A stretch of DNA of 64,000 nucleotides from a virus (lineage: Duplodnaviria > Caudoviricetes), in the IMG/VR virus record IMGVR_UViG_3300023218_000040, positions 128,001-192,000 of that record; one strand, 5' to 3'. The notes beneath the pieces are model-generated. The model saw only the letters and a program-made list of their open reading frames with translations. It searched no databases and was not told where the DNA came from. Shown here one piece after another: positions 21,455-57,270 of the stretch. A program made the translations under genes and the position numbers. The first letter of the stretch is position 1; each line of letters begins with the position of its first letter.

Positions 21455-21485
21455 TTGACTTATTCACTTATATGGGATATAAATA
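21455..21485 (+). promoter_or_regulatory. Composite sigma70/late promoter for tmRNA
   Basis: TTGACT-17 nt-TATAAA overlapping T4-late-like TATAAATA (21478-21485). Confidence 0.7.
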
Positions 21486-21490
21486 AAAGT

Positions 21491-21860
21491 ACAGTTGCTT
21501 GAGCGAACACTTGAAGCTCTACGGACGGCGGTTCGATTCCGCCCATCTCCACTAAACGATGGACATAGAGTAGCAGTGAGTGTACACCGGTACTCTATTT
21601 TCATTAGCGGCAGATAACGCACAACTGCCACATCTCTGGGGATGCCCTGGTTTTGACGTGGTGATGGATGGCTAGTAGTGAGACTGTCGGGTTAGACTAC
21701 CCCCGTAAAGGTTCACCCAAAGTATCTGCAAACGATGCTGTATATGACGAGGAGGTTCTTCCTCTCGCTGCATAAGCGGGAGCCAAGAATTCCTACTGCG
21801 GCTTAACAACCCGCAACGTCCGGGGTCTAACGAGCCTTGTTACCAAAATCCTAGAAAGGG
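21491..21860 (+). ncRNA. ssrA: Circularly permuted two-piece tmRNA
   Basis: Acceptor piece first (T-arm GGCGG-TTCGATT-CCGCC, CATCTCC-A ending 21551), intervening segment, then coding piece from GGGGATG (21638); stem GGGGAUG/CAUCUCC has G3.U70 and A73; tag ORF 21728-21775 ANDAVYDEEVLPLAA*; piece boundaries approximate. Confidence 0.92.
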
Positions 21861-21881
21861 GAGCCTGTGTGCTCCCCTTTT
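21855..21881 (+). terminator. Rho-independent terminator after tmRNA
   Basis: AAAGGGGAGC-ctgtgt-GCTCCCCTTTT. Confidence 0.8.
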
Positions 21882-21926
21882 GCTTTCCGTAATATTACTC
21901 GTCAATCATTTCACCAAGAAACTTTT

Positions 21927-50865: not shown

Positions 50866-50950
50866 TGGTGCCCCTGGAGGGAGTCGAACCCCCATGCCTT
50901 TCGGCGGCGGCTTTTGAGACCGCTGTGTCTGCCAATTCCACCACAAGGGC
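50866..50950 (-). tRNA. tRNA-Leu(CAA)
   Basis: GCCCTTG...GCGGT-CTCAAAA-GCCGC, long variable arm, GGTTCGACTCC, encoded CCA. Confidence 0.95.
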
Positions 50951-51072
50951 ATTCAATTAGATTGTCCTACACAATCGTCCTTTACAACCTCGGACCTTTT
51001 CAGGTATCCATACCATCTATCGGCTAAAGCTACGCTACCCATCGGATCTCTCCTATGGACGTAGCAATCGAT

Positions 51073-51158
51073 TGGTGCGGATGAAAGGACTCGAACCTTC
51101 ACGGGGTTTCCCCCACTAGCCCCTCAAGCTAGCGTGTCTACCATTTCACCACATCCGC
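51073..51158 (-). tRNA. tRNA-Leu(GAG)
   Basis: GCGGATG...CTAGC-TTGAGGG-GCTAG, long variable arm, GGTTCGAGTCC, encoded CCA; TAAATA 10 nt upstream. Confidence 0.95.
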
Positions 51159-51891: not shown

Positions 51892-52411
51892 CCTAGTAGA
51901 AATTGCTTGACATTTGCTTTTTACGCTGTATAATGTGTACCGTTGAGTTAGAGAAAGCAAGAGGAATTCGTAATGAGCAACACCCTTACTCGCAACGATG
52001 TCCTTGACCTGATTGGTGACGGCACCTTCTTCAGTGTCGAGTTCACCAAGCGTCCGAAGCCCCTTGGCAAGCGTGCCCTTGCCCGAGGCGAGGTCCAGCC
52101 GACCGAGGGTGAGTACCGGGTCTATCCTACGTGTCGCACGGGCGTCAAGAAGTACGTTACAGGCGTCGGCAAGAAGTTCGATGATGGCGACAAGAACATC
52201 GTCACGGTGTTCGTGTTCAAGGAGGGCATCAAGGTCGATGACCGTACCGAGATGACCGCCGAGACCGGTGCCTACCGCTCCATCCCCTGCGAGAACGTGA
52301 AGGTTCTCAGGACGCACAGCAAGACCTTCGAGGTCGTGGACGGTTCCCTAGTAGAAATTGCTTGACATTTGCTTTTTACGCTGTATAATGTGTACCGTTG
52401 AGTTAGAGAAA
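51892..52411 (+). repeat. 65-bp perfect direct repeat carrying a sigma70 promoter (51892-51956 and 52347-52411)
   Basis: CCTAGTAGAAATTGC-TTGACA-16 nt-TATAAT-GTGTACCGTTGAGTTAGAGAAA, continuing with one mismatch into CAAGAGGAA RBS. Confidence 0.95.
51973..52365 (+). CDS. Hypothetical early protein
   Basis: GAGGA RBS; last codons (SLVEIA*) come from repeat copy 2. Confidence 0.75.
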   Translation: MSNTLTRNDVLDLIGDGTFFSVEFTKRPKPLGKRALARGEVQPTEGEYRVYPTCRTGVKKYVTGVGKKFDDGDKNIVTVFVFKEGIKVDDRTEMTAETGAYRSIPCENVKVLRTHSKTFEVVDGSLVEIA

Positions 52412-52427: not shown

Positions 52428-52703
52428 ATGAACAAGTCCAAAGAGCTTTACATCGAGCCCGGTGCCAAGAATGGCTGGTTCGAGCCCAGACTGTCCAAGA
52501 AGGGGCAGTCCGGTATTGTCACGACCATCAGCTATCAGGGTCTCGTAGACATTTTGAAGGAGGCTGGTGTCATCGGTAGCGACCAAGAGGCAGAGCGCCT
52601 CCGCATCACCCAGCAGGGCATCGATGTGTTCCTGGATGGCCCTCCACGCACCGTGGGTGAAGCCATAACCCAGCGCACTCGTAATCGAGAGTTCCGGCGA
52701 TGA
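52428..52703 (+). CDS. Hypothetical early protein
   Basis: GAGGA RBS after repeat copy 2. Confidence 0.7.
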   Translation: MNKSKELYIEPGAKNGWFEPRLSKKGQSGIVTTISYQGLVDILKEAGVIGSDQEAERLRITQQGIDVFLDGPPRTVGEAITQRTRNREFRR

Positions 52704-52791
52704 GCGACAAGACCATCCTTCTGGAGCCGAACGAGCGAGATAACTGACTCTATCCTCGCAAAGATATTCGGCAGAATATGGACTAAATCTA

Positions 52792-52820
52792 TTGACTTCC
52801 AATTCAAGGAGTGATAAATA
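52792..52820 (+). promoter_or_regulatory. Promoter of the atypical tRNA(GUA)
   Basis: TTGACT-17 nt-TAAATA, 12 nt before the RNA 5' end. Confidence 0.65.
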
Positions 52821-52832
52821 TACAAAACACAT

Positions 52833-52921
52833 GGGTGTTTTTCCCCACTCTGGTCTGTAAAACCAGCGTCAAAAAACCGTGGGGTGGTAGACGGGAGGTT
52901 CGATTCCTTGAACACCCACCA
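52833..52921 (+). tRNA. Atypical D-armless tRNA-like RNA with GUA (Tyr) anticodon, 8/4 acceptor/T geometry
   Basis: GGGTGTTT/GAACACCC + A-CCA; anticodon arm CTGGT-CTGTAAA-ACCAG; variable stem CGTC/GACG; T loop TTCGATT; only 9 nt between acceptor and anticodon stems. Confidence 0.75.
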
Positions 52922-52924
52922 AAT

Positions 52925-52950
52925 AAAAAGGCTCCTTCGGGAGCCTTTTT
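52925..52950 (+). terminator. Rho-independent terminator
   Basis: AAAAAGGCTCC-TTCG-GGAGCCTTTTT. Confidence 0.9.
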
Positions 52951-53032
52951 CATTTGTGACACAGTTCACAGACATTTCCTGAAGAATAGTGTAGGATACA
53001 TCTATCGACCCAACAACCATGAGGAGATAGAG

Positions 53033-53260
53033 ATGTACAAGGACGCTTACGCAATTCTGGAGGAGGAGTCGCCGTGCGACACGTGCGAGAACTTCATGCA
53101 GTGCCGTTACGAGCCGCTCGCCTGCAAGGACTTCCTGGACTACACGAACGACGGCAAACTGGTCCGCTACGACGACGAGGGCAACGAGATCGAGGGCAAC
53201 AAGGAGCCGAAGCGACGCTACTACAAAGTGCTCTTCCCGAATGACCAGATCACCGCCTGA
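53033..53260 (+). CDS. Small Cys-containing hypothetical protein
   Basis: GAGGAG RBS; PCDTC....QC......C..F..Y. Confidence 0.65.
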   Translation: MYKDAYAILEEESPCDTCENFMQCRYEPLACKDFLDYTNDGKLVRYDDEGNEIEGNKEPKRRYYKVLFPNDQITA

Positions 53261-53266
53261 AAACAC

Positions 53267-53295
53267 TTGACAAACGGGATAGAGGAGAGTATAGT
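53267..53295 (+). promoter_or_regulatory. Sigma70-type promoter upstream of an ORF-free structured region
   Basis: TTGACA-17 nt-TATAGT. Confidence 0.7.
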
Positions 53296-53301
53296 ACACA
53301 C

Positions 53302-53936
53302 CATAGCAGAGAATACTATACAAAGAACCACGGATTCACAGGGATTAATAGGGTTGCGTTCGAATAATACACGCACCCGGCGACCTGGGGTAACGTCGCC
53401 ATTCAAAGACCCCCTTGACATTTGGGTGGCTCTACGGACCTACCCGGCGACCTGAGCACGTCGCCTGACGAATAAAAGGCTCCCCGAATTTTTGAATTCG
53501 GTGGCATCTTCGACTGAGACGGTACCGTGATACAGCACGGGGAAAGTGGAGAATAACTGTACGCCAACGTAGTCGAACCTCTGCCACCGACTTACAATCG
53601 GAGACGTACATCGTTTCCGGGCGACCTCGGCAAGTCGCCTGACGAAAAAACTGCCCTTTGAACACGGTCTTTTGTTTCTGGATTCGCCCATGGGATGACC
53701 GGGAAATCATAACCGGGTGTTAGCGAGCCTTGGGAAGAGACATCGAATGTAATGGAGTCCGACTAGCCATACAGTGTCGGTGACAGGCTGGAAAGACAGC
53801 GGTTTGAGACAAGTCGGGCCAAGAGCGGCCAACCTGACAGCCGGTGTGAGTCCGGGCAGCCCGACGACTTGAATTGCAGGGTGCCGCACCTGGGAACAGG
53901 TGGCCGCTGGAGGCTCGATCCCTCAACTCTGCTCCA
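53302..53936 (+). ncRNA. Candidate large structured ncRNA (~630 nt) ending in a tRNA-like domain with CCA
   Basis: No credible ORF; three GGCGAC/GTCGCC hairpins; nested stems 53498-53506/53582-53590 and 53509-53515/53571-53577; 3' stem GCAGGGT/ACTCTGC + T-CCA. Confidence 0.6.
53379..53646 (+). repeat. Three GGCGAC-N8-10-GTCGCC hairpin repeats (53379-53400, 53446-53465, 53620-53639); last two followed by TGACGAA
   Basis: Direct inspection. Confidence 0.85.
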
Positions 53937-53965
53937 ATCAACGCCAAATTCGGAGATAAGACCTA

Positions 53966-54295
53966 ATGGCAACAAAGACAACCAAACTGGCTGGACCCGA
54001 TAGCAAAGGCAACTACAAGGTGCTCTCGGTCACCAATCATCTCGGCGTGAAGCCCGGTGAGGTTTACACCGAACGCTATGTTCGAAACCACATCATGCAC
54101 TCCAACGGTCCCAACGTGACCATCGTCCAGCCGAAGTACGAGGGCATGGTCGAGAAGCAGCGGAAGTGCTTCACGGATAAGCCCGTCAACCATGACTTCT
54201 GGTCGAGCCCATTCGCTGAGGAAGTAGATGGCAGCCAAGAGAGTCTGGATGCAGCTTACGCAAAGTTCGCTGCTTTTCTGAAAGAAAATTCTTGA
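53966..54295 (+). CDS. Hypothetical protein
   Basis: GGAG RBS; C-ending codons like other early genes. Confidence 0.7.
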   Translation: MATKTTKLAGPDSKGNYKVLSVTNHLGVKPGEVYTERYVRNHIMHSNGPNVTIVQPKYEGMVEKQRKCFTDKPVNHDFWSSPFAEEVDGSQESLDAAYAKFAAFLKENS

Positions 54296-57112: not shown

Positions 57113-57191
57113 GCTCCGTTGGACTAGTCTGGTTTAGGTCGTCACCCTCTCAAGGTGAAGGTCGTGGGTTCGAATCCCACACGGAGTGCCA
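57113..57191 (+). tRNA. tRNA-Glu(CTC)
   Basis: TCACC-CTCTCAA-GGTGA, GGTTCGAATCC, encoded CCA. Confidence 0.93.
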
Positions 57192-57193
57192 AT

Positions 57194-57270
57194 GCACCGT
57201 TCGTCTAGTGGCCTAGGATGCCTGCCTTTCAAGCAGGAAGACGCCGGTTCGAATCCGGCACGGTGTACCA
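57194..57270 (+). tRNA. tRNA-Glu(TTC)
   Basis: CCTGC-CTTTCAA-GCAGG, GGTTCGAATCC, encoded CCA. Confidence 0.93.

Follow-up and report, generated by a model that had tools for sequence, protein, structure and literature searches.

What is encoded by a stretch of about 0.63 kb of a giant phage genome that lies behind a near-consensus sigma-70 promoter but contains no gene? The stretch lies in a window of 64,000 nt, corresponding to positions 128,001 to 192,000 of the 204-kb IMG/VR virus record IMGVR_UViG_3300023218_000040 (Duplodnaviria; Caudoviricetes), which is estimated to represent about 55% of the genome. A first-pass annotation, based on the sequence alone, had noted the promoter, the lack of a credible ORF, a series of stems and a terminal tRNA-like domain, and proposed a large structured non-coding RNA under its own promoter that recalls GOLLD and ROOL but might be a new class. 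Our analysis confirmed what the annotation had observed, as the promoter, the ORF-free stretch and every listed stem are present (Table 1). The proposed interpretation was also supported, because the region is non-coding, is conserved in position and in blocks across six phage lineages, contains three modules supported by compensatory changes, and matches no Rfam 15 family, including GOLLD and ROOL. We refined it in several respects: the RNA is not followed by a terminator but heads an operon of small genes, the tRNA-like domain closes locally as a mini-tRNA without an anticodon loop, and the relatives are larger and carry a 5' pseudoknot domain that is absent here.

Table 1. Positions of the predicted RNA, its parts and its surroundings within the 64,000-nt window.
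Feature	Position	Strand	Sequence or structure	Basis
Sigma-70-type promoter	53267-53295	+	TTGACA (53267-53272), 17 nt, TATAGT (53290-53295); predicted start near 53302	11 of 12 consensus positions
Whole predicted non-coding RNA	about 53302-53936	+	About 635 nt, from the predicted start to the encoded CCA	No ORF; folding energy; homologous ORF-free stretches in L002, L003, L008, L049, L053 and L055
First GGAUUC motif and small hairpin	53332-53378	+	Hairpin GCGU/ACGC (53356-53374) enclosed by GGGU/ACCC (53351-53354 with 53375-53378)	Hairpin covaries with L053 and L008
Pseudoknot module A	53379-53413	+	Hairpin GGCGAC/GTCGCC; loop GGGGU pairs with ACCCC after an A-rich linker	Loop-to-tail comparison
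Pseudoknot module B	53446-53482	+	Same hairpin; loop GAGC pairs with GCUC after the linker UGACGAAUAAAAG	Loop-to-tail comparison
Branched domain	53498-53590	+	9-bp outer helix, 7-8-bp second helix, CCGUG/CACGG hairpin and a weaker third arm	Energy fold; related domain in L003
Stem of 9 bp	53498-53506 with 53582-53590	+	TCGGTGGCA with TGCCACCGA	
Stem	53509-53515 with 53571-53577	+	TTCGACT with AGTCGAA	
Stem	53525-53529 with 53536-53540	+	CCGTG with CACGG	
Pseudoknot module C	53620-53655	+	Same hairpin; loop GGCA pairs with UGCC after the linker UGACGAAAAAAC	Loop-to-tail comparison
Conserved motif and hairpin	53678-53716	+	CUGGAUUCGCCC, followed by a CCGG-type hairpin	Identity to L003 and L008; pairing predicted only
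Two hairpins	53759-53800	+	CCGAC (53759-53763) with GTCGG (53776-53780); GCTG-GAAAGA-CAGC (53787-53800)	Energy fold only
Outer helix of the 3' domain (53801-53875)	53801-53808 with 53868-53875	+	GGUUUGAG/CUUGAAUU	Energy fold; counterparts read by eye
Conserved inner domain	53813-53865	+	Closing helix GUCGGGC/GCCCGAC and inner hairpin CCGG-UGUGAGU-CCGG	Compensatory changes in 3 sequences
Mini-tRNA	53876-53936	+	61 nt; 7-bp acceptor GCAGGGU/ACUCUGC, middle arm capped by GGAA, T-like arm GAGG-CUCGAUC-CCUC, tail UCCA	21 pairs; same fold in all six lineages
Spacer and conserved downstream gene	53937-54295	+	29-nt spacer with GGAG ribosome-binding site, then a 109-aa gene starting MATKTTKLAGPD (ATG at 53966)	Spacer conserved across lineages
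Flanking tRNA genes	50866-51158 and 57113-57270			
Unusual tRNA-like gene with its own terminator	52833-52957			
Permuted tmRNA	21491-21775			95 bits

We first asked whether the region could be coding and whether its folding exceeds chance. The longest plus-strand ORF has 62 aa and begins at the TTG of the -35 box itself, minus-strand ORFs reach up to 92 aa, and stop-to-stop frames reach at most 58 aa on the plus strand and 95 aa on the minus strand. Translated similarity between the homologous stretches was spread over all six frames in short patches, as expected of nucleotide conservation without coding. The plus strand folds at -234.9 kcal/mol (z = -3.4), whereas the minus strand gives z = -1.85, with 20 shuffles for each strand. 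The GC content is 54.8%, compared with 48.2% for the window. No intrinsic terminator was found on the plus strand between the RNA and the next gene. The decisive evidence for structure, however, comes from homologues with compensatory changes.

We next searched for known families. No Rfam 15 family matched the stretch in a search of positions 52700-54100 at E values up to 10, and none matched in seven homologous loci (L002, L003, L008, L049, L053, L054 and L055; see below) at E values up to 1, apart from ordinary tRNA genes. This excludes GOLLD (RF01998), ROOL (RF03087), tmRNA and RNase P RNA at this sensitivity, and SRP RNA, riboswitch-type pseudoknots (preQ1, guanidine-III) and group I or II introns likewise gave no match. 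At the curated thresholds, the whole window yielded only tRNAs and the permuted tmRNA. Word resemblances to RNase P RNA (GUGAAAGG, AAGAGCG and GAAGUCC) are in the wrong order and take part in local hairpins. ARAGORN found nothing in the region at 100, 90 and 80% of its thresholds and gave only implausible calls at 70%. Neither ARAGORN nor the tRNA model RF00005 reports the 3' element, which lacks a 7-nt anticodon loop.

Direct searches for homologues were unsuccessful. Phage GenBank records searched by blastn gave nothing, as did complete E. coli genomes; IMG/VR, searched by neighbouring proteins and by three RNA patterns, gave only chance matches as checked by blastn; and GTDB genomes, searched by protein and by a 16-base pattern, gave 120 chance matches, none carrying the pseudoknot module beyond two likely coincidences. 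A word look-up with the sequence found no look-alike outside this genome. The successful route was the conserved downstream gene, whose relatives (55-74% identity between lineages) led to metagenome contigs representing five other uncultured phage lineages. These contigs are L053 and L054, which hold 3' parts only; L055, of the same lineage as L054; L008; L003 to L006, all one phage; and L049. A further contig, L002, is 99% identical to the window and differs at only four positions within the RNA, and is uninformative.

In every contig long enough to show it, the gene is preceded by a long stretch in which gene callers found nothing or only a doubtful ORF: gaps of 0.7-1.5 kb were left empty in L002, L004, L005 and L008, only a 29-aa call was placed in L003, and a 164-aa ORF was placed over the homologous region of L055. 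Where the 5' side is readable, a sigma-70-type promoter starts the stretch (TTGACA/TATAAT in L008, TTGACT/TATAAT in L049 and TTGACG/TAGTAT in L055). The predicted RNAs measure about 1120 nt in L008, 1030 nt in L003, 1045 nt in L055 and 770 nt in L049. The order of blocks is broadly the same across lineages, although module number, insertions and size differ. As MAFFT alignments of the whole RNAs and of the mini-tRNA misplaced the helices, we used a covariance-model alignment and gap-free pieces instead.

At the 3' mini-tRNA, all six lineages end in the same three-way junction, and each adopts it as its own minimum-energy fold. It consists of an acceptor helix of 7-8 bp, a middle arm closed by a 4-nt loop (GGAA or CAAC) and lengthened by about 25 nt in L003 and L049, a T-like arm with a 4-bp stem and a 7-nt loop (CUCGAAU or a close variant), and a four-base tail UCCA; a partial contig, L051, has ACCA. 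The acceptor of the window is replaced by GCCGGGU/ACCCGGC in L053, GCGGGGU/ACCCCGC in L008, GCGGGUGG/CCACCCGC in L003 and GUGAGGGU/ACCCUCGC in L049. On a covariance-model alignment of five lineages, 94.8% of cells pair and 5 pairs change on both sides; the acceptor pairs in 100% of cells, compared with 40-54% for slid controls. This alignment is fitted to the model, which favours the structure, and the model misaligns L049, which was counted by hand; however, the independent folds and the hand-made comparison agree with it. In the four lineages whose middle arm has no long insertion, the element is 73-87% identical, compared with 68-77% for the first 180 nt of the adjacent gene.

Five of the six lineages have the acceptor helix, a T-like arm with a 7-nt loop and a single-stranded NCCA tail, as expected for a tRNA-like processing element of the mascRNA or t-element type. 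In the L054/L055 lineage, however, the acceptor is extended to 11 bp and the CCA is absent, which argues against an obligatory RNase P/CCA step in that lineage. The T loop carries C at the place of T54 in every lineage. The element occurs once in the 204-kb record and, lacking an anticodon loop, cannot decode. The glycine identity set (G1-C72, C2-G71, G3-C70 and U73) is complete in L008 and L003 but is not conserved in the other lineages, so that specific charging is not supported. We also considered closure of the whole RNA by its two ends, because the energy fold suggests pairing of GCAGAGA at 53306 with ACTCUGC at 53926. This was rejected, as the relatives have no matching 5' word and the local partner GCAGGGU at 53876 covaries.

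The domain just upstream is supported as well. A block of the form AAGAGCGRCCA..CCUKACAG, followed by a hairpin CCRG-UGUGAGN-CYGG, is shared by the window, L053 and L008, and is enclosed by a helix whose letters differ completely, being GUCACGCG/CGCGUGAC in L053 and GCUGCGG/CCGCAGC in L008. On a gap-free alignment of these three sequences, 12 pairs are 94% paired and 6 change on both sides; no shuffle out of 500 reached the observed values, and slid controls pair in 20-47%. The energy fold adds the outer helix, which ends exactly where the acceptor begins. Its counterparts, UUUCG/CGAAA in L053 and a shorter helix in L008, were read by eye, and this helix is rich in G-U pairs and is the least secure part of the 3' domain.

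The hairpin GGCGAC/GUCGCC, present three times in the window, occurs once in each relative, as GCGAC/GUCGC in L003 and L049. It is followed by an A-rich linker, typically UGACGAAUAAAAG, and then by 4-5 bases complementary to the hairpin loop. Besides the three modules of the window, the loop and tail bases are CCGGU and GCCGG in L055, GCCCG and CGGGC in L003 and L049, and GGGU and ACCC in L008 and L053. Six distinct modules keep the loop-to-tail pairing with different letters, all six when G-U pairs are counted and five with Watson-Crick pairs alone, in which case the loop-to-tail matrix is nearly diagonal. Shuffled loops show such a match in only 3-9% of trials for each module, but the register was chosen after the sequences had been seen and these figures are indicative only. 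The shape is that of a classical H-type pseudoknot with a long A-rich third loop. The letters of the second stem are free, so the fold matters rather than its sequence.

The rest of the body has thinner support, as only six lineages are known and most of the 635 nt lies outside the comparative tests; the two hairpins at 53759-53800 and most long-range pairs rest on the energy fold alone. The small hairpin just before module A covaries, being GGCC/GGCC in L053 and GCGC/GCGC in L008 at the same place. The branched domain is matched in only one distant lineage, L003, with which it shares an inner segment (26 of 31 positions identical) inside different outer helices. The motif CUGGAUUCGCCC shows a 12-nt exact match to L003 and a 10-nt match to L008, with a second, weaker copy at 53332 in the window, and the hairpin that follows it is 81% identical to L003. 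In the 5' domain of the relatives, a purine-rich strand pairs with CCUCCUCUCCUCUCUC, and a second helix of 10-11 bp crosses that pairing and covaries between L003, L008 and L055.

These results strongly indicate a genuine structured non-coding RNA of a family absent from Rfam 15 and confined, as far as we could find, to a small clade of uncultured giant phages. Concerning its mechanism, which we regard as only somewhat more likely than not, we propose that host RNA polymerase would transcribe the RNA early, as the first part of a transcript that continues into three small genes, up to the convergent DUF6765 gene, a layout shared by the relatives. The mini-tRNA would act as punctuation. An acceptor helix, a T-like arm and an NCCA tail together form the classical minimal substrate of bacterial RNase P, and host RNase P would cut at its 5' side, leaving the large RNA with its 3' end paired in the outer helix. 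Host 3' tRNA-maturation enzymes would then cut or trim after the CCA and free the mRNA, and the released RNA would act in trans as a scaffold or sponge, like other large ornate phage RNAs found near tRNA islands. The promoter, the non-coding nature, the conservation and the three covarying modules are shown by the sequence analysis, whereas transcription, both cleavages, any function in trans and its target are inferred. No CCA-adding enzyme and no SmpB gene were found in the 204-kb record, which is only about 55% of the genome. The downstream protein, considered as an RNA-binding partner, has no Pfam or PHROG family; its AlphaFold model is confident (pLDDT 89.8) but has no significant structural match, the best being eukaryotic ribosomal protein L38 at an E value of about 1 and a TM score of about 0.4.

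A bolder version of this model is possible but unlikely on present evidence. In this view, the phage would use the MALAT1 design: the giant ornate RNA would be made from an early transcript, the non-decoding mini-tRNA would recruit host RNase P, the large RNA would be left with its 3' end tucked into a helix, and a stable 61-nt tRNA mimic would be released. The large RNA would be a new class that assembles into an RNA-only or protein-bound particle acting on the host tRNA or translation machinery, and the mimic could be a decoy for tRNA-directed defence enzymes.

The main alternative, which we consider unlikely but cannot exclude, is that the RNA is a cis-acting leader, a giant 5' UTR controlling the downstream operon through transcript stability, antitermination or translational control of the MATKTTKLAGPD gene, with the tRNA-like element as a structural cap rather than a cleavage site. 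The RNA always lies upstream of genes on the same strand with no terminator, the same gene family follows in five of six lineages, the spacer of 28-29 nt with its ribosome-binding site is conserved, the L054/L055 lineage lacks the CCA, and the helix next to the acceptor could stack on it. However, at 0.63-1.1 kb the RNA is far larger than known bacterial or phage leaders, a 69-aa ORF and a separate promoter-like sequence lie between the RNA and the conserved gene in L008, and five of six full lineages, plus L051, keep an NCCA tail directly after a 7-8-bp acceptor helix.

It is more doubtful that the region is a patchwork of decayed tRNA genes and duplicated selfish RNA modules in a fast-changing tRNA region, with no function for the RNA as a whole. 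Its location in a tRNA island, the variation of the pseudoknot modules from one to three copies at different places, an internal fragment of L055 that looks like tRNA halves in permuted order, and recurring T-loop-like words would fit this view. However, the promoter, block order and 3' domain are kept across lineages whose neighbouring protein is only 55-74% identical, the compensatory changes show selection on pairing, and the mini-tRNA is more conserved than the adjacent coding sequence in the four lineages without the middle-arm insertion.

A derived tmRNA-like molecule, acting on ribosomes or blocking the host rescue system, is very unlikely. The architecture does recall one-piece and permuted tmRNA, with several H-type pseudoknots with A-rich third loops, a tRNA-like three-way junction with CCA, and a GGAUUCG word like the tmRNA D-loop analogue, and the phage already carries a permuted tmRNA. 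However, besides the lack of a match to tmRNA models and of an SmpB gene in the record, the third acceptor pair is A-U, C-G or G-C in the six lineages and never the G-U (G3-U70) that specifies alanine, no conserved tag frame exists, and the tRNA-like domain closes locally rather than joining the two ends of the RNA. That the region encodes one or more small proteins can be largely excluded, despite the short ORFs and the call in L055, because no frame is preferentially conserved, no gene longer than 29 aa was called in L002, L003, L004, L005 or L008, the 62-aa ORF starts inside the -35 box, and compensatory RNA pairs explain the conservation.

Large ornate RNAs of phages are among the biggest RNAs without a known function, and GOLLD and ROOL were recently found to build RNA-only cages (bioRxiv 10.1101/2024.12.08.627333). 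A further, unrelated family in the same setting would add a comparison point, and suggests that linkage to tRNA-like structures is a recurring feature of such RNAs. If host tRNA enzymes mature this RNA, it would be, to our knowledge, the first phage example of the tRNA punctuation found in MALAT1 and organelles. In practical terms, gene callers place false ORFs on the RNA, as in L055, and Rfam has no model for it.

The RNA has the general features of large ornate phage RNAs, being phage-encoded, longer than 500 nt, non-coding, near tRNA genes, and endowed with several pseudoknots and covarying pairs. GOLLD and ROOL share this setting, often lying next to tRNA islands, and GOLLD has a variable 5' part and a conserved 3' part and sometimes carries tRNAs in its linker region (bioRxiv 10.1101/2024.12.08.627333); here the body also varies between lineages, the 3' domain is the best-kept part, and a tRNA-shaped element is attached. 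It differs from both in matching neither covariance model at the thresholds given above, in its repeated small H-type pseudoknot modules, in having an anticodon-less mini-tRNA as its fixed 3' end, and in heading an operon without a terminator. In vertebrate MALAT1/mascRNA (PMC8457004) and in the t-elements of plant mitochondria, which were shown to direct RNase P and RNase Z cuts (PMC1920247), a small tRNA-shaped element without decoding capacity sits at the 3' end of a long RNA or between RNAs, and tRNA-processing enzymes use it to create the ends. mascRNA has 58-61 nt, close to the size of the element here, and MALAT1 protects its end with a triple helix (PMC8457004), whereas here the sequence just upstream can pair so that the new 3' end would be base-paired. 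These systems belong to a different domain of life and have no sequence relation to the phage RNA, in which the CCA is encoded and cleavage is inferred. The 3' ends of plant RNA viruses, such as the upstream pseudoknot domain and tRNA-like structure of TMV, and TYMV, likewise have a run of pseudoknots followed by a terminal tRNA-like structure ending in CCA. However, they belong to RNA genomes and their acceptor arm is itself pseudoknotted, whereas here the phage has a DNA genome, the acceptor is a plain helix, and an mRNA follows.

In the relatives, the RNA begins with a pseudoknot domain that is absent from the window. In four metagenome contigs carrying the homologous RNA (L003, L008, L049 and L055), a purine strand (GAGAGAUGGANGAGG) pairs with a pyrimidine strand (CCUCCUCUCCUCUCUC) that contains the anti-Shine-Dalgarno word CCUCC, and this pairing is crossed by a second helix of 10-11 bp, which covaries between lineages. 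Inside the L055 RNA, we observed a T arm plus an acceptor 3' strand ending UUCCA, directly followed by what looks like an acceptor 5' strand, a D-arm-like word and a hairpin. No Rfam hit was found for this element, which is either a tRNA in permuted order or two tRNA remnants joined by a deletion. The gene finder of the source called a 164-aa ORF in L055; this ORF lies entirely within the homologous RNA stretch and overlaps the pseudoknot module and the mini-tRNA, and is probably a false gene call.

The 28-29 nt between the mini-tRNA and the start codon (around CGCUAACUCGGAGAAAGACC) are conserved at the nucleotide level across the lineages of the window, L003, L049, the contigs L053 and L054, which hold 3' parts of the RNA, and the partial contig L051, more than a ribosome-binding site alone would need. 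The conserved downstream protein (P0001 in the window; relatives P0002-P0009) has no Pfam or PHROG family. AlphaFold gave a confident small beta-beta-beta-alpha-beta fold (pLDDT 89.8), but no significant structural match was found, the weak best rows being eukaryotic ribosomal protein L38. The window's copy has a 38-aa C-terminal extension.

The upstream neighbours differ. In three relatives, an ATP-dependent DNA ligase gene lies upstream of the RNA, directly in L003 and L049 and about 1.5 kb upstream in L055, whereas the neighbours in the window are instead a 75-aa cysteine-rich ORF and a tRNA-like gene. Further upstream in the window, two perfect sigma-70 consensus promoters (12 of 12 positions), 455 bp apart, bracket one gene.

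Coordinates of the additional features in the window and in the related contigs
Sequence	Coordinates	Feature
Window	21491-21775	Permuted tmRNA gene, Rfam match
Window	21462-21897	Same gene, ARAGORN call
Window	51907-51934	Consensus promoter
Window	52362-52389	Consensus promoter
Window	52833-52957	tRNA-like gene
Window	52925-52957	Terminator following the tRNA-like gene
Window	53937-53965	Conserved spacer
Window	53966-54295	Downstream gene (P0001)
L003	2547-3893	DNA ligase gene
L003	3944-4045	5' pseudoknot domain
L008	1098-1200	5' pseudoknot domain
L049	1-880	DNA ligase gene
L049	1043-1140	5' pseudoknot domain
L055	1-381	DNA ligase gene
L055	1921-2020	5' pseudoknot domain
L055	2195-2290	tRNA-like fragment
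L055	2490-2984	164-aa ORF

The tRNA-like gene of the window was missed by ARAGORN and by the Rfam tRNA model RF00005, with only a weak hit to a tRNA-Sec model (24.8 bits), and is followed by a strong hairpin-plus-T-run terminator. L008 and L003 carry ordinary-looking long-arm tRNAs upstream of their copy of the RNA. The window also contains a permuted tmRNA gene of the two-piece type, which matches Rfam RF04321 at 95 bits and is also called by ARAGORN. No SmpB gene was found in the 204-kb record.
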